Source: Candidatus Woesearchaeota archaeon | GTDB taxonomy: Archaea; Nanobdellota; Nanobdellia; Woesearchaeales; JAGVZT01 | DNA length: 64,000 nucleotides | Assembly (NCBI GenBank): GCA_018263355.1 | Contig: JAANXH010000054.1 | Location: 2,779 to 66,778 of the forward strand | Reading direction: 5' to 3' | Part shown: one piece after another, positions 2,654 through 29,104 of the stretch | Layout: every line of letters begins with the position of its first letter | Numbering within the stretch: position 1 is the first letter of the stretch | Made by a program: the position numbers and the translations under genes | The notes under the pieces: generated by a model | The model's database searches: none | What the model saw: the letters and a program-made list of their open reading frames with translations, nothing else | What the model was told of the DNA's origin: nothing

Positions 2654-3844
2654 TTGGAAAAAATGGTTTTATCAAAAAACTATTTAAACCAATTCACTAA
2701 AACAAAATACATGAAGAAAATCCTTTGGGTTATAATCCTGATATTGAGTATCCAGATATGTTATTCCCTAGGTGTTGGACCAGCTTTTAACACATTAGAA
2801 TATAAGCCAGATACTGTCCAAAGTGGATATCTAAAAGTATATAACACAGAGGACAAAGATCTATATGTATTGTTAAATGTAGATGGGGCATTAAAAGACT
2901 ATATTGTTCTAGATCAAACACAAGTAAATGTTAAGCCAAATGAAGATTTTAAAAGAATATACTATCATGTAGAACACCCTGAGCTAGAGCCTGGATCATA
3001 CCCAACTAGAATCAAAATAATTGAAACTCCTCCTGATGTGGGAGGAGAATCAGTAATTACAGCAGCTTTGGGAGTTTCCCACAAAATTGCTTTAAATGTT
3101 CCAGCATTTGGAAAATATCTTAGAATAGATTTTTCAATTCAAGATAAGTTTCTAAAAATAACTCTTGATAATATTGGAGAGGAAAAAGTTGATCAAGCAG
3201 ACATTGTTTTTACTCTAACAGATGAAAAACAAGAACTAGTTTATGAAGACTCAGCTTCAAATATTGCAGTTGGACAAACAGCAACAGTTACCAGAAACCT
3301 GCAAAAAATCCAGGATGGAGTATATCAGGCAAAGTTAGATATAACATACGATCAAGTAAATAAAGTAATTGAAAAACAAGTTGCTATAGGTCAAATTCTT
3401 GTAACTATTAACAGTATGCAGATAGCAGACTTTGAGCTTGGAGACATTGCAAAAATTGACCTGGAAGTAGAAAATCAATGGAATCGTGACCTAGATAATC
3501 TAAACCTTGAAATGGAGGTTGTAAAAAACAACAGAGTTCATGGTTCATATAGGTCAGAAGATTTTAACTTAAAAGCCAAGTCCAAAAAGAATATTTCCAC
3601 GTATTGGGATACACAAGGAAAACCTTTGGGCGACTATGATGCACACTTTACAGTAAACTATGCTGGTCAAAGAACAGAGAAAAGTTTTGTACTAACATTG
3701 CAAGAACAAGGAATTATAACTAAGGCAAAGAAATTCAACTGGATCTTGCCTATTAGTATAATTGCCGTAATCTTACTGGTTGTTGCAATATTATTGCTGT
3801 TAAGATACATAAAGCAAAGAAAAGATCCTGTGGTTTTACATTAA
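2654..3844 (+). CDS. secreted/surface protein with N-terminal signal-anchor and C-terminal TM anchor plus basic tail
   Basis: N-term KKILWVIILILSIQICYS; C-term ILPISIIAVILLVVAILLLLRYIKQRKD. Confidence 0.6.
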   Translation: MEKMVLSKNYLNQFTKTKYMKKILWVIILILSIQICYSLGVGPAFNTLEYKPDTVQSGYLKVYNTEDKDLYVLLNVDGALKDYIVLDQTQVNVKPNEDFKRIYYHVEHPELEPGSYPTRIKIIETPPDVGGESVITAALGVSHKIALNVPAFGKYLRIDFSIQDKFLKITLDNIGEEKVDQADIVFTLTDEKQELVYEDSASNIAVGQTATVTRNLQKIQDGVYQAKLDITYDQVNKVIEKQVAIGQILVTINSMQIADFELGDIAKIDLEVENQWNRDLDNLNLEMEVVKNNRVHGSYRSEDFNLKAKSKKNISTYWDTQGKPLGDYDAHFTVNYAGQRTEKSFVLTLQEQGIITKAKKFNWILPISIIAVILLVVAILLLLRYIKQRKDPVVLH

Positions 3845-4786: not shown

Positions 4787-5986
4787 CTACATCAAAAAAT
4801 AAGATAATACAGGAAGTATTAAGCACCCCATGGCGTGATTTCTTCCAATATCTTTTAATGGAGCAATCAACCCGATAGCAGCACCAGTAATTAAGACTAT
4901 TATTCCTATTGGTCCATTTAACACTAAGCTCATAATAAATATCAAACTAATAACTGAGATAACTAATCTTTTGTAATTAACTTTTACAATCAAGTTGGAA
5001 AATATTTTGGAAAACCATAAAGTGAGTAAAACTGATACTGAGCCTGCAATTAAAAAAACAAAAATCAAGATTAAAAAAGAATTCAAGTCAATTTCCATTA
5101 ATTTTGAAATAACAACTATAGTGCCGTCTTTTGCTTTATCCAAAGTATAAAATGTAACTAAAGAAAACACAACACTCATTGTTCCCATAGCACCAACTAA
5201 AGCTAAATACCCTTTATCTTTAACATCTCTTACAATCTGGTTGCTTATCACTGCTCCCTGAGCTGGCCCTAATCCTGGAAAAAATTGAATAAAAAAAACT
5301 GCTATACTGCTTCCTAAAATAGCCTTAACCAAATCTTTAATCTTGAGATCAATTCTTGATTCAATCTTCTGCTTTGGAATTTTTGTATTTTCATAATAAC
5401 TTAAGATTAAACCAGAAACACCAAATAAACCAGATAACATTGGAAACAAAGGCTCTTTGAAATTTGGAATAGAGAACACAACCAATCCCAAAGTGCCAGA
5501 AAGCATAAATAAAATAAAACTCCATAGTTTCTTTTGTTCTTTTAAAATCATATAAATCATTAAAACCAACAGTAAGTATCCAACATAAGGTTTTAGAAAA
5601 TTATAGACTTTTGTAGCAATTAGCATAAAAACAGGAATTAGCACAATCGCAACCAATAAACCAATATATGTTCCTAGAATTGTAATTTTAACAGCCTGAT
5701 AACCTTCACCTTTTAAAAGCATTTTCTGACCTGGCAGCACAGATAAAGCATTCTCATTTTCCGGAGCACCCAAATAAATTGAAGGAATAGTGTCAAGAAA
5801 AGAATGCACCACGCTAAGTGAAATGATAAATGCAGCAAGTGATAGAGGAGACATAAACCCTAGCAACCAAGGGGACAGAGCAAACATAGCAGTTGCAACT
5901 AAGTTAACATGAATTCCAGGTATTATGCCTGTGATGATACCGCAGGACACGCCAACTAATAATGCTATAAGTATCTCAATAAACAT
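4787..5986 (-). CDS. polytopic membrane protein, TctA/DUF112-like transporter (tentative)
   Basis: 399 aa, about 10 TM segments, Gly/Pro-rich N-terminal helices IITGIIPGIHVNLVATAM. Confidence 0.45.
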   Translation of the reverse strand: MFIEILIALLVGVSCGIITGIIPGIHVNLVATAMFALSPWLLGFMSPLSLAAFIISLSVVHSFLDTIPSIYLGAPENENALSVLPGQKMLLKGEGYQAVKITILGTYIGLLVAIVLIPVFMLIATKVYNFLKPYVGYLLLVLMIYMILKEQKKLWSFILFMLSGTLGLVVFSIPNFKEPLFPMLSGLFGVSGLILSYYENTKIPKQKIESRIDLKIKDLVKAILGSSIAVFFIQFFPGLGPAQGAVISNQIVRDVKDKGYLALVGAMGTMSVVFSLVTFYTLDKAKDGTIVVISKLMEIDLNSFLILIFVFLIAGSVSVLLTLWFSKIFSNLIVKVNYKRLVISVISLIFIMSLVLNGPIGIIVLITGAAIGLIAPLKDIGRNHAMGCLILPVLSYFLM

Positions 5987-6002
5987 ATTGTGCGGTGCGG
6001 GC

Positions 6003-6202
6003 GGGACTCTCCAAGCCAGGGGCCAAACTTATTTGAACCAGCATGGAACTGAGAGTTCCACCTGAGTGTGCAAAAATCACTGATTTTTGAACACTTGAAA
6101 ACCTATGGTTTTCACGTGCATCAATCAGGCGCAATACCTGATTACACAGAAATCAAAGATTTATGTGTTAGGAAATCTCGGATTTCCTTTATGCGACCGC
6201 AC
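6003..6202 (-). ncRNA. candidate structured RNA or heavily interrupted tRNA-like gene
   Basis: GC-rich island in 500-nt intergenic gap; terminal 11-bp pairing GTGCagtGGTGCGG / CCGCACCGCAC; ends ..gagagtCCCGCCCGCACCG like the tRNA 3' exons found elsewhere; no clean cloverleaf found by eye. Confidence 0.2.
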
Positions 6203-6489
6203 CACTGCACAACGAAACACTCAAAAACTCCAATCTCTTCCTATAAACTTAACTGGGAGTTTCACTTGGGTTTATGTGACTCTTTGTTTCTTTTTTCCTA
6301 ATATCTATAAGAAATCCAGAGATGTAGATTTATATGCTTTGACTACAAAAAAGCAAAATACTTGCGAGAATTTGGAAATAAATCTTGATTTTTCATATTA
6401 ATAAGATTAATCTAAGTTTTCTTGGAGATCTTACGAATAATAAAAAAGAATTAATGTTTACCTGTTGATTTTTCCTTGATCTAATAATT

Positions 6490-12359: not shown

Positions 12360-12407
12360 AACTAAATGGAGAATAGATTTATTTAAAAGATTTATGTATA
12401 AGATATA

Positions 12408-12688
12408 TTACTCAGAATGCGTTGGGTCTAAATCCCCTGGCTGTCGGGAAGCATAGCTTCCTGAGCATGATCAGAAATCATAGATTTCTGACATTTAGCC
12501 CGTAGCATTATGAGTCTGAAAATCTGCTTATCAAAGTGAAGAGCGTAAAAGCTCCCACCTCTCAGAAATTTTAAATTTCTGATGATGGTTGCCAGAGCAA
12601 CCTATGAATGTTAATGAATATGATCAGAAAACTTTGTTTTCCGACATTTAGGTGGGAGATAAGATCTGAACAGCAGATTTTCTTTATA
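12408..12688. repeat. structured repeat family A, copy 1 (expanded by internal insertions)
   Basis: shares ttactcagaatgcgttgggtctaaa..gagtctgaaaatctgcttatcaaagtgaagagcgtaaaagc..ctgaacagcagattttcttta with 23741-23927 and 28964-29104; stem ctcccacct/aggtgggag covaries with cccccacct/aggtggggg. Confidence 0.7.
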
Positions 12689-12696
12689 AAATAAAA

Positions 12697-12982
12697 TGGG
12701 CTCAGAGGGACTTTCATAAACATTTAATTAAGCTAACCAAAGTTTTAACAATGCATTTGATTGTGTCGTGGTAATTTTGTGTTGATTATTCACCACGTAA
12801 AGGGACTTCAAGTCCCTTATGTTTTGGTCAAACCCAAGGAAAACATAGTTTTCCTGGCACAGGAAATTTTTGATTTCCCGGTGTTTTCTTAAAAGTTTGA
12901 TTTGAACCCTCGACCTATTAACCCAGTTTTAATAACTGTCTGGTTAAGAGCCAGTTGCTCTACCTAGCTAAGCTATGAGCCC
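12697..12982 (-). tRNA. intron-containing tRNA, anticodon CTT (Lys) inferred; about 190-nt intron after the T-loop plus extra insert 3' of anticodon arm
   Basis: 5' exon GGGCTCA ta GCTT AGCTAGGTA GAGC..CTGG CTCTTAA CCAG..GAGGG TTCAAAT; 3' exon CCCTC TGAGCCC A at 12697-12709 exactly complements T-stem and acceptor (12-nt match). Confidence 0.4.
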
Positions 12983-13034
12983 ACTTTTAGTTAATGAAAA
13001 AGAGGCAAATAAAAGGTTATAAATCTTTTGGAAT

Positions 13035-18269: not shown

Positions 18270-18468
18270 AGCGGGAGGAGGGACTTTCAATACCTTTTTC
18301 CAAAGTGGATTCGACGTAGTCGAAGACACCTGCTTTTGGTGCAACTTTTAAGCGAAGCGGTAAAAGGTGCATTTGAACCCTCGGATCGTCGGGATCTATC
18401 AGTCATAGCAAAAATGCTCTTCATCCCGTTGCAGCCGACTGCCTTAAACCGGACTTGGCCACTCCCGC
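18270..18468 (-). tRNA. tRNA-Cys (anticodon GCA) with canonical 37/38 intron (about 35 nt) and a second about 88-nt intron after the T-loop
   Basis: GCGGGAG tg GCC AAGTCCGGTTTAA GGC a GTCGG CTGCAA [intron] c CCGAC GATCC GAGGG TTCAAAT [intron] CCCTC CTCCCGC T; all four stems pair. Confidence 0.55.
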
Positions 18469-18472
18469 AATA

Positions 18473-18730
18473 TGGACCCGAAGGGACTTTCGACAATCCT
18501 AAAACCAACTCGTACCGTGGTTATTTAGTTTTCATATCTTCCACGTCAAGGGGCTTAGGCCCCTTATGTTTTGGTCGAGCTTTTTTTAAAAGATCGATTC
18601 GAACCCTTGATCTACAGCTGTCTGTAATCGCGGATTTCCGAGCAAATCTCGGTTCCCTCAATCTTAGAAGGCTGTCGCCTTATTTGCCCAAACCTTTATT
18701 CAAAGTTCACCAGGCTAGGCTACGGGTCCA
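18473..18730 (-). tRNA. tRNA with anticodon TCT (Arg) inferred; D-loop, 37/38 and T-loop introns
   Basis: GGACCCG ta GCCT AGCCTGGT[insert]AGGC g ACAGC CTTCTA[intron]a GCTGT AGATC AAGGG TTCGAAT [intron 18486-18596] CCCTT CGGGTCC A. Confidence 0.4.
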
Positions 18731-18825
18731 TATAGATTAGTGCTTTTATATAATATATAAATTTTTCTTATAGAAACACCACTTTTATCAAAACCTTTAA
18801 AAAAAACCACATTCTCCTAAAATAT

Positions 18826-19563
18826 ATGGTCAAATATGTATTTTATACAGAAAAAGGAAAAAGATTCTATTCTAAGGATGGAAAAGATATGCATACTCAA
18901 TATGGATACCTAACATCAGAAGATATCAAGAAGGCAAAATTTGGGCAAACATTAGAAACAAACACAGGAAAAAAAATGTCCAAGATAAAACCTAGTTTTA
19001 TGGATGTTTACACTAGGATTAAAAGAGGGGCTCAAATAATTCCACTAAAAGATATTGGGGTTATATTAACAGAAACAGGAATCAACAACAAAAGCAAAAT
19101 TGTGGATGCTGGCGCAGGCTCAGGTGGGCTTGCATGTTTCTTAGCAAACATTGCAAAACAAGTTACAACATATGATATTCGGGAGGATTTTATAAAAATA
19201 GTTGAGAAAAACAAAAAACTTCTAAACTTAAAAAATCTAAGAATAAAGAAGGGAAGCGTTTACGAGAAAATTGATGAGAAAAATATTGACCTAATAACTC
19301 TAGACTTGCCTGAGCCATGGAAAGCAGTAGAAAACGCTTCTAAATCTTTGGAAGTTGGAGGCTATATTATGTCATACTCACCATGTATACCACAGGTTAT
19401 GGACTTTGTAGAAGAAGTTAACAAGCATAATGAGTTATTATTCATAAAAACTATTGAAATAATAGAAAGAAAATGGGATATTAACAAAAGAAAAGTTAGG
19501 CCAAAAACTCAGACCATTGGCCACAGTGGGTTTATGACATTTGTAAGAAAAATAAAAAACTGA
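18826..19563 (+). CDS. trmI: tRNA (adenine-N1)-methyltransferase TrmI/Gcd14-like, SAM-dependent
   Basis: VDAGAGSGGLACFLA SAM motif; architecture typical of TrmI; TGA stop. Confidence 0.7.
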   Translation: MVKYVFYTEKGKRFYSKDGKDMHTQYGYLTSEDIKKAKFGQTLETNTGKKMSKIKPSFMDVYTRIKRGAQIIPLKDIGVILTETGINNKSKIVDAGAGSGGLACFLANIAKQVTTYDIREDFIKIVEKNKKLLNLKNLRIKKGSVYEKIDEKNIDLITLDLPEPWKAVENASKSLEVGGYIMSYSPCIPQVMDFVEEVNKHNELLFIKTIEIIERKWDINKRKVRPKTQTIGHSGFMTFVRKIKN

Positions 19564-22146: not shown

Positions 22147-24078
22147 TTACTTCACGGTAACTGATTTTGCTAAGTTTCTGGGTTTGTCAGGATCTTTACC
22201 TAATTTTTTTGCTAGGTAATAAGCAAGCAATTGCATTGGTACAACATTTGCAATAGGTGAAGCATACCCACAGTCAGGAACCTTAATCCATTGATCAAAA
22301 ACTTCATTATCTTTTGGACTTACACCAATAATATGACCTCCTCTTGCTTTAACCTCTGCCGCGCTACTTAAAACAGCCATTTTATGTTCATCCTCTCCCA
22401 CAATAGCAATGCAAGGAGTAGCCTCTTCAATCAATGCAATTACACCATGCTTGAGTTCACCGCATGCAAAACCTTCTGCATGAATATAACTAATTTCTTT
22501 TATTTTCAAAGCTGATTCTAAAGCAATAGGATAATTAACACCCTTGCCAATAACATAAATGTGTTTCTTATTTTTTAGCTGATCTGCAATACGTTCAACA
22601 TTATTTAAAAAATCCTTATTAAGTAATTCTTTAATATTCTCTGCAGTATTTAGGATTAATTTTTTGCCCATTTCTTGCTTTCCTGCTAAAGTATAAGCCA
22701 GCATCAATAAAATTGCAATCTGTGAGGTAAATGCTTTTGTTGAAACAACAGAAATTTCTGGACCAGCATTCATTAGAATAGGATAATCTGAAATTCTGGT
22801 CAAACTTGAACCCATTACATTAACAATACTGGCTACTTTGGAATTATGTTTTTTTGCAGTCTCAACAGCATCTAGTGTGTCAGCAGTCTCACCACTTTGG
22901 CTAACTGCTATAACCAAGCTTTTGTCAGTAAGAAAATGTTGGTGATCAGAAAACTCGGAGCCTACTAAAAAATTAATATGTTTTTTGGCAATCTTAGAAA
23001 AATAATATGTGCCAAGTAATGCAGCATAACTTGCAGTACCGCATCCAATCAAAAAACTTCCATAAGCCTTATCAATAACTTTAGCCAGTTTTTTAACTTT
23101 TATACTATCCTGGACTGCAGAATCTTCTATAGTATCTGGTTGCTGCATTATTTCTTTGATTGTGTAGTTCTCGTAATCTCCCTTCTGTGCCTGCTCAACA
23201 TCCCAGTTAACAATTTCAATATCTTTCCTAATCTCCTTTCCAGTATTATCAAAAAACTCAATATTATTATTGATTTCTACACCTTCATCATTATCCAAAA
23301 AAACAATTTTGTTTGTATGCTCAATAAATGCAGGAATATCTGAAGCAATAAAATGACCCTTATCAGAAACACCAACAACAATTGGTGCACCCTTTCTAAT
23401 AGCAAACAATTTTTCACTAGGTTTATGAAATAACACAATTGCATTTCTTCCTTGAATAATATTACCAAGTTTGATTAAAGCGTTTCTTACCCCTAAAGAG
23501 CTATGCTCTTCAAGAAAATGAGCAATCACTTCTGTATCAGTATCAGATATAAATTTATGTTCTGAAAGTGTTTTTTTAATTTCCTGATAATTTTCAATAA
23601 TCCCATTGTGCACAACAATCATATCTTGGTTACAATCAGTTTGTGGATGAGCATTGTTCATAGTAACAGACCCATGTGTGGCCCATCTTGTGTGCCCTAA
23701 TGCAATATTACTTTTATCAAGTTTAACATCTGGATTAAAATTACTCAAAATGTCCAAGGGTCTAAAGCCCCGCCCTTTAGGGCGAGGACTTTTGAGTCTG
23801 AAAATCTGCGTGTCGAAGTGAAGAGCGTAAAAGCCCCCACCTTCAGGTGGGGGAATCAGTTGCCAGAGCAACTCAGAAACGAAGCAAAGCGAAGTGAGAT
23901 TAGCTCTGAACAGCAGATTCTCTTTACCTATCTTCCCTACTTTCTTGATTAGCTGCAGATCATTATCAAAAGTTGCAATTCCCCAAGAATCATAACCCCT
24001 GTACTCTAATCTTTTCAAACCTTCAATAACAATATCTGTTGCATTACCTTTTCCTTTATATGCTATTATACCACACAT
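22147..24078 (-). CDS. glmS: glutamine--fructose-6-phosphate aminotransferase (GlmS) carrying an about 62-aa in-frame insertion from repeat family A
   Basis: MCGI N-terminal nucleophile, HTRWATHG, two SIS domains, C-terminal KSVTV; insertion between GKIGKENL and LGHTRWATHG. Confidence 0.85.
   Translation of the reverse strand: MCGIIAYKGKGNATDIVIEGLKRLEYRGYDSWGIATFDNDLQLIKKVGKIGKENLLFRANLTSLCFVSELLWQLIPPPEGGGFYALHFDTQIFRLKSPRPKGRGFRPLDILSNFNPDVKLDKSNIALGHTRWATHGSVTMNNAHPQTDCNQDMIVVHNGIIENYQEIKKTLSEHKFISDTDTEVIAHFLEEHSSLGVRNALIKLGNIIQGRNAIVLFHKPSEKLFAIRKGAPIVVGVSDKGHFIASDIPAFIEHTNKIVFLDNDEGVEINNNIEFFDNTGKEIRKDIEIVNWDVEQAQKGDYENYTIKEIMQQPDTIEDSAVQDSIKVKKLAKVIDKAYGSFLIGCGTASYAALLGTYYFSKIAKKHINFLVGSEFSDHQHFLTDKSLVIAVSQSGETADTLDAVETAKKHNSKVASIVNVMGSSLTRISDYPILMNAGPEISVVSTKAFTSQIAILLMLAYTLAGKQEMGKKLILNTAENIKELLNKDFLNNVERIADQLKNKKHIYVIGKGVNYPIALESALKIKEISYIHAEGFACGELKHGVIALIEEATPCIAIVGEDEHKMAVLSSAAEVKARGGHIIGVSPKDNEVFDQWIKVPDCGYASPIANVVPMQLLAYYLAKKLGKDPDKPRNLAKSVTVK
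23741..23927. repeat. structured repeat family A, copy 2, inside glmS coding sequence (reverse orientation to gene, no stop codons in gene frame)
   Basis: ttactcaaaatgtccaagggtctaaagcccc..gagtctgaaaatctgc..gtgaagagcgtaaaagcccccaccttcaggtggggg..ctgaacagcagattctctttac. Confidence 0.7.
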
Positions 24079-28952: not shown

Positions 28953-28963
28953 AAATACCCATT

Positions 28964-29104
28964 TTACTCAGAATGCGTTGGGTCTAAAGCCCCGGGCTTT
29001 AGCCCGCAGCATTATGAGTCTGAAAATCTGCTTATCAAAGTGAAGAGCGTAAAAGCCCCCTCCTTTAGGTGGGGGATCAGCTCTGAACAGCAGATTTTCT
29101 TTAC
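28964..29104. repeat. structured repeat family A, copy 3 (compact form)
   Basis: ttactcagaatgcgttgggtctaaagccccgggctttagccc..gagtctgaaaatctgcttatcaaagtgaagagcgtaaaagccccctcctttaggtggggg..ctgaacagcagattttctttac. Confidence 0.7.

Follow-up and report, generated by a model that had tools for sequence, protein, structure and literature searches.

How can a stretch of DNA carry three apparent tRNA genes that standard gene finders do not see? The question arises in a 64-kb window of woesearchaeal DNA (the whole stretch analyzed, 64,000 nucleotides, to whose positions all coordinates refer), in which an earlier note had pieced together three minus-strand tRNA genes by hand. ARAGORN on the unspliced window calls no tRNA at any of the three loci, and neither does Rfam at gathering or E-value thresholds; under lax filters the Rfam tRNA model matches only the 5′ exon of the lysine gene, at 20.9 bits, which is below threshold. 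All three tRNA genes of the window are thus invisible to both tools. Standard finders miss them because each contains two or three introns, including a long one in the T-loop. When the inserts are removed at the sites predicted by bulge-helix-bulge (BHB) motifs, ARAGORN returns perfect cloverleafs of 74, 75, and 76 nt with all stems intact, the expected anticodon loops, and, in tRNA-Cys, U73. Splicing in silico therefore confirms the three minus-strand loci as real tRNA genes, each interrupted by two or three inserts. Four sequencing runs each yielded this contig in independent assemblies, and we reject an assembly artefact on this ground. Runs SRR10589498, -499, -504, and -507 contain DNA of this organism.

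The bare geometry of the T-loop insert (a T-loop, a 4-bp helix, and 5-bp plus 7-bp complementarity) has four matches in the real window compared with a mean of 2.3 per dinucleotide shuffle, and is not rarer than chance in DNA of 33% GC. Since this test is uninformative, geometric matches were instead spliced and passed to ARAGORN. A tRNA ending at the proposed 3′ end was obtained from three of the four real matches and from none of 265 matches in 100 shuffles.

The layout of the genes is as follows, with exons placed by in-silico splicing.

12697 to 12982, minus strand: tRNA-Lys(CUU) gene, 286 nt, three exons and two introns, CCA not encoded; predicted product a 74-nt cloverleaf
12940 to 12982, minus strand: Lys exon 1 (nt 1 to 42)
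12918 to 12939, minus strand: Lys intron 1, 22 nt at 42/43, with a strict hBHBh′ motif
12901 to 12917, minus strand: Lys exon 2 (nt 43 to 59)
12711 to 12900, minus strand: Lys intron 2, 190 nt at 59/60 in the T-loop, a type-A structured intron
12760 to 12833, minus strand: type-A module core within Lys intron 2 (ACCAAAACAU, hairpin P2, hairpin P3; P2 and P3 covary), 83.4 bits with covariance model R1
12697 to 12710, minus strand: Lys exon 3 (T60, 3′ half of the T-stem, 3′ half of the acceptor, A73)
13017 to 13029, minus strand: putative BRE/TATA-like promoter AAAAGATTTATAA upstream of tRNA-Lys
12686 to 12696, minus strand: T-run TTTTATTTTAT directly 3′ of tRNA-Lys, a probable terminator
18473 to 18729, minus strand: tRNA-Arg(UCU) gene, 257 nt, four exons and three introns; predicted product a 75-nt cloverleaf
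18710 to 18729, minus strand: Arg exon 1 (through G19)
18684 to 18709, minus strand: Arg intron 1, 26 nt in the D-loop after G19, with a BHB motif
18665 to 18683, minus strand: Arg exon 2
18620 to 18664, minus strand: Arg intron 2, 45 nt at canonical 37/38, with a relaxed BHB
18598 to 18619, minus strand: Arg exon 3
18487 to 18597, minus strand: Arg intron 3, 111 nt at 59/60, a type-A structured intron
18509 to 18580, minus strand: type-A module core within Arg intron 3, 89.4 bits with R1, with compensatory changes relative to L015
18473 to 18486, minus strand: Arg exon 4
18270 to 18468, minus strand: tRNA-Cys(GCA) gene, 199 nt, three exons and two introns, U73 discriminator; predicted product a 76-nt cloverleaf
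18429 to 18468, minus strand: Cys exon 1
18394 to 18428, minus strand: Cys intron 1, 35 nt at canonical 37/38, called as an intron by ARAGORN, with a relaxed BHB
18372 to 18393, minus strand: Cys exon 2
18284 to 18371, minus strand: Cys intron 2, 88 nt at 59/60, a type-B structured intron
18270 to 18283, minus strand: Cys exon 3
18752 to 18767, minus strand: putative promoter GAAAAATTTATATA of the Arg-Cys unit, conserved in L015/L017
18256 to 18269, minus strand: T-run CTTTCTTTTTTTCC 3′ of tRNA-Cys, a probable terminator

All three genes lie where the earlier note had placed them, except that tRNA-Arg starts at 18729 rather than 18730. The complementarity it described between the 3′ exon and the 5′ halves of the acceptor and T-stem contains no mismatch, but this exon measures 14 nt under the BHB rule (T60, 5 nt, 7 nt, and the discriminator) and not 13. 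Its 37/38 introns in tRNA-Arg and tRNA-Cys are likewise present, as are the further inserts in the D-loop of tRNA-Arg and at 42/43 of tRNA-Lys. The AAAAGATTTATAA motif also occurs about 27 to 35 nt upstream of the Lys orthologue in the relatives L017, L019, L020, L021, and L023. tRNA-Cys begins 4 nt downstream of tRNA-Arg, and the two are probably cotranscribed.

Another region, 5985 to 6270, was considered as a fourth tRNA, as it carries GGTTCAAAT and acceptor-like ends; it did not resolve as one. Rfam has no match there; when BHB-like inserts were removed in combinations, 0.28% of 150,001 trials led to an ARAGORN call, and the anticodons did not agree with one another.

The junctions have the form expected of archaeal BHB introns, with splice sites in bulges of about 3 nt flanking a 4-bp helix, strict or relaxed. 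In a local scan, the top-ranking BHB motifs fall on the boundaries whose joining yields a normal tRNA. The motif is strict at the Lys 42/43 intron, where the best-scoring local BHB falls exactly on the boundary (central helix 4, outer 3, inner 5), and at the Arg D-loop intron, which likewise has the best local BHB (central 4, outer 2, inner 7). The 59/60 introns have a complete central helix (4/4) and an inner helix that is offset by 0 to 1 nt or mismatched at its start, and the 37/38 introns of tRNA-Arg and tRNA-Cys have relaxed motifs with two to three of the four central pairs. Excision from such relaxed and offset motifs would require an endonuclease of broad specificity.

At 59/60, the exon strand of the central helix is the T-loop itself: T54 to R57 pair with YGAA of the intron, flanked by 3-nt bulges. 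In Lys intron 2, TTCA (12906 to 12903) pairs with TGAA (12716 to 12713), followed by the 3′ bulge AG/T, the slash marking the splice point. Minimum-energy folds of the T-arm with its intron contain the T-stem, a helix of 4 to 5 bp, and a 3-nt bulge (z = -2.4 to -4.6); that of Arg intron 3 has the T-stem, a TTCG/CGAA helix, and an AGU bulge (z = -4.45), and the RNAalifold consensus includes the T-stem and the central helix. Further, R57 covaries with the intron Y (GC in four sequences, AU in two) and matches it in 14 of 14 59/60 introns seen in the window and its relatives. Some relatives have A, C, or G and not T as the first intron base, which sets the site at 59/60, excludes 60/61, and places the insert inside the T-loop, not after it where the earlier note had put it. 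All three T-loop inserts carry CTTTTA, always 4 nt from the first base of the intron, although the longer cttttaa once read in all of them fails in tRNA-Cys, which has CTTTTAC. Each insert ends in YGAAAG, with T60 next, as had been noticed; this conserved GAAAGT mostly reflects the need to pair with the universal T-loop. Position and T54-R57 pairing are those of a described class of 59/60 T-loop introns (PMC4090602; PMC3239211), supporting the assignment of the insert as an archaeal BHB intron at an already known position. Indeed, 59/60 is a listed noncanonical site for archaeal tRNA introns (PMC4090602), and the 59/60 intron of ARMAN-2 tRNA-Cys(GCA) is cleaved in vitro by a broad-specificity endonuclease (PMC3239211), so that calling the arrangement unusual was an overstatement.

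Syntenic orthologues that keep the exons occur in six other Woesearchaeota: in six relatives for tRNA-Lys, in L015/L017 and L020 for tRNA-Arg, and in L015, L019, and L020 for tRNA-Cys. Anchoring synteny on the adjoining TrmI gene succeeded only for the closest relative, L015; no tRNA adjoins TrmI in L013 and L016. Between the window and the closest relative, exons of the three genes are identical at 74/75, 73/75, and 72/74 positions (97 to 99%), compared with 76.7%, 77.5%, and 69.3% for the introns, which also differ by large indels, and 76% DNA identity for TrmI. This comparison shows the exons to be under purifying selection. The 59/60 site of tRNA-Lys, with 190 nt in the window, holds 146, 30, 29, or 0 nt in orthologues. 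Where an intron is missing, the sequence equals the predicted junction: at 59/60 in L019 and L023 (Lys) and in L019 (Cys), at Lys 42/43 in L020, L021, L022, and L023, which read contiguously through CCAGTAGGTC or CAGTCGGTC, and at Arg 37/38 in L020, which has contiguous CCTTCTAAGCTGT. Intron-less orthologues therefore match at three of four positions; for the D-loop junction, none of the orthologues examined lacks the intron. The L020 orthologues of tRNA-Arg and tRNA-Cys have hairpin introns of 29 nt and 30 nt at 59/60, and the D-loop intron of the L015 tRNA-Arg is about 115 to 121 nt long and includes the type-A module. Together with in-silico splicing and BHB geometry, this presence and absence of inserts supports the original reading of multi-intron tRNA genes with a BHB-like T-loop intron. 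The series of 0, 29 to 30, 146, and 190 nt at a single orthologous site across seven related genomes is unusually clean natural material on the gain, expansion, and loss of archaeal tRNA introns. The long 59/60 introns probably grew from the 29- to 30-nt hairpin introns.

Judged by sequence, these are very likely functional Lys-CUU, Arg-UCU, and Cys-GCA genes of the Woesearchaeota (DPANN), whose transcripts would each carry two or three BHB introns spliced by proteins. Transcription of each gene or gene pair would start from a BRE/TATA-type promoter. All introns of the precursor would be folded with both splice sites in 3-nt bulges beside a 4-bp helix; for the T-loop intron, the exon strand T54-T55-C56-R57 would face the intron strand YGAA followed by the bulge AG/T60, the 5′ bulge would be A58-N59/intron base 1, and a helix between intron bases 2 to 10 (NNNN-CUUUU) and the segment just before YGAA would close the motif. 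By analogy with established archaeal biology, EndA would cleave both bulges and RtcB would ligate the exons, the intron probably being released as a circle with the junction YGAAAG/UNNNNCUUUU, and RNase P, the CCA-adding enzyme, and T-loop modification enzymes would finish the tRNA. Pfam detects neither an EndA nor an RtcB gene in the window; DPANN EndA enzymes with an L3 loop have been associated with disrupted tRNA genes (PMC5829648). Position 59/60 is a hot spot for introns in Woesearchaeales, and a short hairpin intron of 29 to 30 nt could fit any tRNA because its 3′ end need only complement the universal T-loop. In the lineage of the window, the hairpin loop would have been expanded with structured modules, type A in tRNA-Lys and tRNA-Arg and type B in tRNA-Cys. 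The type-A module is present in the D-loop intron of a close relative as well.

The module first noticed as common to the Lys and Arg genes is recovered by covariance model R1, whose 89.4 and 83.4 bits there compare with at most 16.9 bits elsewhere in the window; its core scores 83 to 90 bits in the Lys T-loop, Arg T-loop, and relative's Arg D-loop introns. R1 does not pick up the type-B introns, which occur in tRNA-Cys, tRNA-Gln, and tRNA-Lys as well as in L007 and L010 genes of unassigned identity. Homologous introns thus recur across tRNA species and positions, as in the "transposed" intron families of the Thermoproteales. Hairpins P2 and P3 are 98% paired, and 5 of 12 pairs are altered on both sides, a number reached in 1 of 500 shuffles, with slid controls pairing at 30 to 48%. 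Across tRNAs and genomes, ACCAAAA(C)A is kept as a single-stranded motif. The 5′ segment can pair with either of two partners but not with both at once, and both pairings covary: it can form a local hairpin, which competes with the BHB-competent fold, or the BHB inner helix. Each of these is specific to its own intron (26 of 32 pairs compared with a derangement mean of 17 to 18, and 0 of 7390 derangements reaching 26), although the covariation statistics are weak because only five to nine related sequences are available. To judge from the covarying module and from the segment with two partners, some BHB introns may do more than fill space.

A woesearchaeal family of long (88 to 190 nt), structured 59/60 introns seems to be new. 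The strict pattern GGTTCRAATNNNNCTTTTAN{68,98}YGAAAGTCC was searched in genome, metagenome, and viral collections, of which the first two do not include the genome of the window. Among 185,579 species genomes it matched one other organism, along with a chance match in Treponema; the metagenome collection yielded one further contig, and the viral contigs had no match. Because the pattern is strict, these counts underestimate the true spread of the family.

A different account of how the introns became long and alike is compatible with BHB splicing and concerns only that origin: the modules may be small MITE-like DNA mobile elements that inserted into the hairpin loops of short BHB introns already in place and would be harmless there because the whole intron is spliced out. 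Such an origin fits the length series at one orthologous site, an indel of about 95 nt that distinguishes the D-loop introns of the window and L015 and coincides exactly with the module, module flanks that are both complementary to the 5′ segment and could be a decayed target duplication, and the presence in the window of another small repeated element in three copies. However, R1, run over about 130 kb, finds no extra or free-standing module beyond those in tRNA introns, terminal inverted repeats were not seen, the two flanking segments are dissimilar beyond the demands of pairing, and P2/P3 pairing is maintained by compensatory changes, which point to selection at the RNA level. We regard this origin as possible, though on balance improbable.

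The modules could instead be functional RNAs hosted by the introns: they might persist as stable circles, bind proteins, serve as guides, or act in cis as a folding switch that times splicing. The paired and doubly changed P2 and P3, the conserved single-stranded motif, and the exclusive partners of the 5′ segment all speak for this reading, as does the precedent of the C/D-box RNA in the haloarchaeal tRNA-Trp intron. It is nonetheless unlikely: C boxes (RUGAUGA) and D boxes (CUGA) occur in no T-loop intron of the window, no Rfam family matches even under lax filters, and the handful of related sequences limits the covariation. Moreover, orthologous tRNAs lack the module, which is therefore dispensable for the tRNA. 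A K-turn was also rejected, its GA dinucleotides not being conserved as judged by eye.

Decaying pseudogenes, or tRNA genes inactivated by insertions that are never removed, would explain why standard tools call nothing at these loci and why the inserts are long for archaeal tRNA introns. Such decay is very hard to reconcile with exons conserved at 97 to 99% against about 69 to 77% for the inserts, perfect stems after splicing, BHB motifs kept by covariation across the exon-intron boundary, a conserved promoter motif, and the retention of the same architecture in a relative with about 80% protein identity. Self-splicing by a group I-like or other ribozyme, as the conserved structured core and the presence of group I introns in archaea, as well as in the tRNA genes of other lineages with reduced genomes (PMC6125680, PMC13011429) might suggest, is the least probable reading, as no Rfam intron (group I or group II) or ribozyme matches at the gathering threshold or E ≤ 10, 88 to 190 nt is far under group I size, 29- to 30-nt introns at the same orthologous site cannot be ribozymes, and every junction has a BHB motif. 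Two further identities were rejected: att-site duplication (inserts of 88 to 190 nt, no integrase, and no intact 3′ end right after the T-loop) and split or permuted genes (all exons are colinear within 199 to 286 nt).

Read as functional genes with BHB introns, the three loci bear on tRNA annotation in this phylum. tRNAscan-SE probably misses them too: in its search for noncanonical introns a candidate is lengthened by no more than 60 nt, and other phyla supplied the training data for its models (PMC8450103). Of 208 complete Nanobdellota genomes surveyed in 2026, just 96 had tRNAs for all 20 amino acids, a shortfall that was tentatively attributed to lost or split genes (10.64898/2026.05.13.725050). 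A long intron at 59/60 that leaves a 3′ exon of 14 nt is a concrete alternative that can be tested. More speculatively, and as a tentative proposal, structured module-bearing BHB introns might be selfish or functional RNA elements whose 3′ ends are preadapted to the universal T-loop (YGAA-AG to T54-R57) or to the D-loop (GGGC to GCCU), and which could hence colonize any tRNA gene, growing from 30-nt hairpins to 190-nt multi-helix RNAs; the bistable 5′ segment may time splicing or stabilize the excised circle, and such introns might explain a good part of the "missing" Nanobdellota tRNAs.

Among known systems, the pre-tRNA-Cys(GCA) of Candidatus Micrarchaeum (ARMAN-2) shares with our genes the DPANN affiliation, the identity of the Cys gene, and the 59/60 position (PMC3239211), as well as a relaxed BHB (hBH-type), the T-loop as exon strand of the central helix, and escape from standard finders. 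Its intron, however, is 13 nt and unstructured, whereas those here are 88 to 190 nt with covarying hairpins, and unlike in ARMAN-2 the same intron family occurs at 59/60 of at least five different tRNAs. The ARMAN-2 enzyme is of the special three-unit epsilon2 type.

In the Thermoproteales, tRNA genes have up to three introns and similar introns are found in different tRNAs (PMC4033280, PMC8450103). The "intron transposition" described there (Sugahara 2008 and Fujishima 2010, as reviewed in PMC4033280, PMC4090602, and PMC8450103) resembles our genes in that a single gene can hold as many as three BHB introns, that these occupy noncanonical sites, 59/60 and the D-loop among them, that intron sequences recur in unrelated tRNAs and at different positions, and that gain is rapid and lineage-specific. 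The Thermoproteales are TACK hyperthermophiles, whereas the present lineage is a mesophilic, AT-rich DPANN, and the reviews, whose descriptions are the basis of the comparison, mention neither a shared three-helix module nor a short-to-long series. The split tRNA genes of Nanoarchaeum equitans (PMC4033280) share the phylum-level neighborhood, invisibility to single-locus finders, and BHB-like joining, but their halves are separate genes joined in trans, whereas here the exons are colinear within 200 to 290 nt and the 3′ exon is 14 nt.

The nuclear tRNA introns of one eukaryotic system resemble those of tRNA-Arg in their distribution over three arms, in BHB-dependent removal, and in the dependence of T-arm modification on intron removal; unlike here, they are short and share no intron family. 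The haloarchaeal tRNA-Trp intron, about 105 nt, carries a C/D-box guide RNA. Like the introns of the window it is long, structured, excised through a BHB, and internally conserved, there because of a function of its own, but it lies at canonical 37/38 and has the C/D boxes that the window introns lack. Introns of the 59/60 kind are thus known in other archaea, and it is the long, shared intron family that appears to be undescribed.

A search of the whole 64 kb (33% GC) with ARAGORN and Rfam returned no tRNA. Nevertheless, the three minus-strand loci proposed as tRNA genes in the earlier note contain all tRNA landmarks, each one interrupted. ARAGORN calls Lys(CUU) and Cys(GCA) once the T-loop insert is taken out, and Arg(UCU) when the D-loop insert is taken out as well. 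The exon and intron coordinates below were checked base by base:

12982-12940, 12917-12901, 12710-12697, minus strand: tRNA-Lys exons; introns of 22 nt at 42/43 and 190 nt at 59/60
18729-18710, 18683-18665, 18619-18598, 18486-18473, minus strand: tRNA-Arg exons; introns of 26 nt in the D-loop after G19, 45 nt at 37/38 and 111 nt at 59/60
18468-18429, 18393-18372, 18283-18270, minus strand: tRNA-Cys exons; introns of 35 nt at 37/38 and 88 nt at 59/60

The canonical 37/38 intron expected in two genes is thus present in Arg and Cys, and the further inserts correspond to the 42/43 intron of Lys and the D-loop intron of Arg. With all inserts removed in silico, the products of 74 (Lys), 75 (Arg), and 76 nt (Cys) have perfect stems throughout, normal D-, anticodon, and T-loops, and 5-nt variable loops; tRNA-Cys has a U73 discriminator.

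The geometry alone, a T-loop with, no more than 400 nt downstream, a segment pairing with the T-loop, the T-stem, and an upstream 7-mer, is not above chance, occurring 4 times in the window versus a mean of 2.3 in dinucleotide-preserving shuffles. Removing the insert and running ARAGORN does separate real loci from chance: a tRNA crossing the junction and ending at the proposed 3' end is called for 3 of 4 real hits versus 0 of 265 shuffled hits.

The strongest part of the evidence is comparative, drawn from DNA around close homologues of the neighboring TrmI and Drg genes. The closest relative (GCA_964419615.1), whose TrmI and Drg proteins are ~80% identical to those of the window, carries all three tRNA genes at the corresponding loci, interrupted at identical positions. 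Exons are nearly invariant between the two (74/75 identical in Arg, 73/75 in Cys, and 72/74 in Lys), while the introns are 76.7%, 77.5%, and 69.3% identical, respectively, with large indels besides substitutions; the TrmI gene, for reference, shows 76% DNA identity. In the syntenic tRNA-Lys of more distant Woesearchaeota (L019 to L023), the inserts are variably present or absent.

Inserts in tRNA-Lys of the window and its relatives
Window: 22 nt at 42/43; 190 nt at 59/60
L017 (closest relative): 22 nt at 42/43; 146 nt at 59/60
L019: 20 nt at 42/43 or other; none at 59/60
L020: 16 nt at about 30/31; none at 59/60
L021: none at 42/43 or other; 29 nt at 59/60
L022: none at 42/43 or other; 30 nt at 59/60
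L023: none at 42/43 or other; none at 59/60

The intron-less versions read ...GGGTTCRAATCCC... and ...CCAGTAGGTCG..., exactly the predicted junctions. Likewise, L020 tRNA-Arg, which has a 29-nt 59/60 intron, lacks the 37/38 intron and is contiguous there (CCTTCTAAGCTGT), matching prediction, and the tRNA-Cys 59/60 intron is 30 nt in L020 and absent from L019. A BRE/TATA-like AAAAGATTTATAA lies ~27 to 35 nt upstream of tRNA-Lys in most of the compared genomes. An assembly artefact does not fit these orthologues, and the same contig was assembled independently from four runs; att-site duplications are equally at odds with the comparative data. Nor do pseudogenes fit the exon and intron identities, the presence and absence of inserts, and the exact junctions.

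Further differences among these loci lie outside the genes themselves. The closest relative has a ~120-nt insertion (GGAAAACACCCCCTCCCTGGCAGCGACGGCCTTGCCAG...; L015 ~620-790, L017 2500-2660) between TrmI and the tRNA-Arg promoter that is missing from the window (18770-18830). In L023 (~2660-3000), the intron-less tRNA-Lys is followed by three tandem ~130-nt units, each starting with the 3' end of that tRNA (CCCCTGGGCTCACATTTTTCC), which resemble a tandem duplication or multiple copies of an attachment site.

[quoted passage not shown] For the Lys 42/43 intron (central helix 4/4, flanks of 3 and 5 bp) and the Arg D-loop intron (4/4, flanks of 2 and 7 bp), the top-scoring BHB is the sole boundary restoring a normal tRNA. 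The 37/38 introns of Arg and Cys have a relaxed motif with 2 to 3 of 4 central pairs. The T-loop introns had been placed after the loop; their site is instead 59/60, inside it, because in several relatives the intron starts with A, C, or G, and the normal TTCRAAT needs T60 from the 3' exon. The proposed BHB-like pairing of the T-loop with the intron 3' end holds, and the arrangement exactly parallels that of the canonical anticodon-loop intron: the T-stem serves as outer helix, T54-R57 pair with a YGAA located six to three bases from the intron end, and the bulges are A58-A59|intron base 1 (5') and A-G|T60 (3'). Minimum-energy folds of T-arm plus intron give this arrangement (z = -4.5 for Arg, -2.4 for Cys, and -4.6 for a foreign tRNA-Gln), and the RNAalifold consensus includes both the T-stem and the central helix, in which R57 and the intron pyrimidine covary. 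In all 14 59/60 introns collected, TGAA always accompanies A57 and CGAA always accompanies G57, and these changes occur even within orthologous tRNA-Lys genes. The shared GAAAGT end is real, but its conservation is therefore largely imposed by the universal T-loop.

Among 185,579 species genomes, a strict pattern (T-loop, 4 N, CTTTTA, 68-98 N, YGAAAGTCC) matched a single other organism, a MAG (CAZKFC01) with such introns in tRNA-Gln, tRNA-Lys, and one more gene; it also matched one further metagenomic contig (OBEQ010495102.1). The MAG contigs (L005, CAZKFC010000003.1; L007, CAZKFC010000011.1; GC 31-37%) are titled 'uncultured Methanosarcinales archaeon', a label that looks wrong, as the CCA-adding enzyme has its closest named relatives in Woesearchaeota and Nanoarchaeota (61-65% identity). 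Both multi-intron tRNA genes of L007 (154-236 and 556-648) are preceded by a diverged copy of their own 5' part (GGGCTCATAGCTCAGCC... and GCCTCTGTGGTGTAG...); alternative 5' exons, remnants of a duplication, and other origins are all conceivable. On the metagenomic contig (47% GC), a multi-insert tRNA-like gene (GGGCCCGTAGCTTAGCCTGG..., 633-760) lies upstream of the 59/60-intron tRNA and has an insert within the T-arm at a different position.

The intron cores are of two types, which differ in the core and have the boundary elements in common. The module noted in two introns is real and corresponds to type A (Lys and Arg), a single-stranded motif ACCAAAACAU followed by two hairpins. In ~130 kb, its covariance model gives 83-90 bits for four introns and never exceeds 17 bits outside them. 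One of the four copies is the D-loop intron of the closest relative's tRNA-Arg, where the window has only the 26-nt hairpin intron. The type-A hairpins are 98% paired across five sequences, with 5 of 12 pairs changed on both sides (reached in 1 of 500 shuffles; slid controls pair at 30-48%), a covariation that from so few sequences is suggestive, not conclusive. Type B occurs in tRNA-Cys of the window and its relative, in the MAG's tRNA-Gln and tRNA-Lys, and in unassigned genes of L007 and the metagenomic contig. Neither type matches an Rfam family, a ribozyme, or a C/D box.

Just after the 5' splice site, a conserved NNNN-CTTTT is complementary to two downstream segments. An internal AAAAG-N'N'N'N' forms a local hairpin (RNAalifold, with the four N positions covarying), and a segment ending 6 to 7 nt from the intron 3' end forms the inner helix completing the BHB. 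NNNN makes 26 of 32 pairs with its own partners of either kind versus a mean of 17-18 when partners are swapped between introns; none of 7390 derangements reaches 26, a figure whose independence is overstated by the relatedness of the introns. The 30-nt L022 intron (C-CAGC-CTTTT-AAAAG-AGA-GGTTG-C-CGAA-AA) appears to be the minimal form, and the long introns look like this hairpin with modules inserted into its loop. The duplicated partner may be a folding switch, a helix spanning the junction of the circularized intron, or a decayed target duplication from insertion at the DNA level.

The window encodes archaeal housekeeping genes (Drg-type GTPase, TrmI, GlmS, GlmM, GlmU, GatD/GatE, and aIF5B), and its TrmI and Drg proteins are identical to NCBI proteins from a Candidatus Woesearchaeota MAG. 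Other features are as follows:

18826-19563, plus strand: TrmI gene, divergent neighbor of the two minus-strand tRNA genes at 18270-18729
22147-24078, minus strand: GlmS ORF, 643 aa
about 12518-12690: inverted-repeat element in the tRNA-Lys/Drg spacer, fold -59.5 kcal/mol, z = -5.1
28961-29103 and 23790-23926: intergenic partial copies of this element, 90-96% identical
5985-6270, minus strand: multi-hairpin region, ~225 nt, -99.2 kcal/mol, z = -5.8

TrmI is a tRNA m1A57/58 methyltransferase gene; its adjacency to the Arg and Cys tRNAs is common only to the closest relative and may be coincidence. The tRNA-Lys/Drg spacer (12360-12696) is ~335 nt versus ~60 nt in L017. Its inverted repeat, with C/D-box-like words and weak Rfam snoRNA matches, is a small repeated element that could be MITE-like or belong to an ncRNA family. 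A copy of the window's small repeated element overlaps the N-terminal extension of GlmS, which is ~40-55 codons longer than relatives (586-605 aa); the true start is probably downstream. The 5985-6270 region is closed by GUGCAGUGGUGCGGUCGC / GCCCGCACCGCAC, includes GGTTCAAAT, ends ...GGAGAGTCCCGCC, and matches nothing in Rfam even at E ≤ 10. It did not resolve as a multi-intron tRNA: when BHB-like inserts were removed by brute force, the ARAGORN calls disagreed with one another. It may be an unrecognized or rearranged structured RNA gene.

The introns pass all tests of the BHB class that sequence can address. Beyond the observed boundaries, motifs, and selection pattern, processing most likely follows established archaeal BHB introns (PMC4090602, PMC5829648, PMC7714728). 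EndA would cut the two bulges, RtcB would ligate the exons, and the introns would be released as circles. Since A58 is part of the precursor's 5' bulge, T-loop modification, including m1A58 by the neighboring TrmI, would come only after splicing. Motifs this relaxed require an enzyme of broad specificity; neither EndA nor RtcB is encoded in the 64-kb window. Kaneta et al. link DPANN α4 enzymes that have an additional L3 loop to disrupted tRNA genes, and explicitly predict that further, as yet unidentified, genes of this kind exist in DPANN (PMC5829648).

The practical consequence may outweigh the mechanism. Such genes escape standard finders (ARAGORN and Rfam here; PMC8450103) and may partly account for the reported incompleteness of tRNA sets in complete Nanobdellota genomes (10.64898/2026.05.13.725050). 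In the literature searched, we found no description of a family of long 59/60 introns specific to DPANN whose multi-helix core covaries, of the same core in a D-loop intron, or of an orthologous series from no intron to 190 nt. By sequence, the T-loop introns of Lys, Arg, and Cys clearly belong to the 59/60 class. The earlier note considered that a conserved T-loop intron in several tRNAs would be unusual, but this class is known from Thermoproteales and from ARMAN-2 tRNA-Cys, whose 13-nt intron is cleaved in vitro (PMC3239211). Three introns per gene and similar introns common to several tRNAs are also already known (PMC4033280, PMC8450103).
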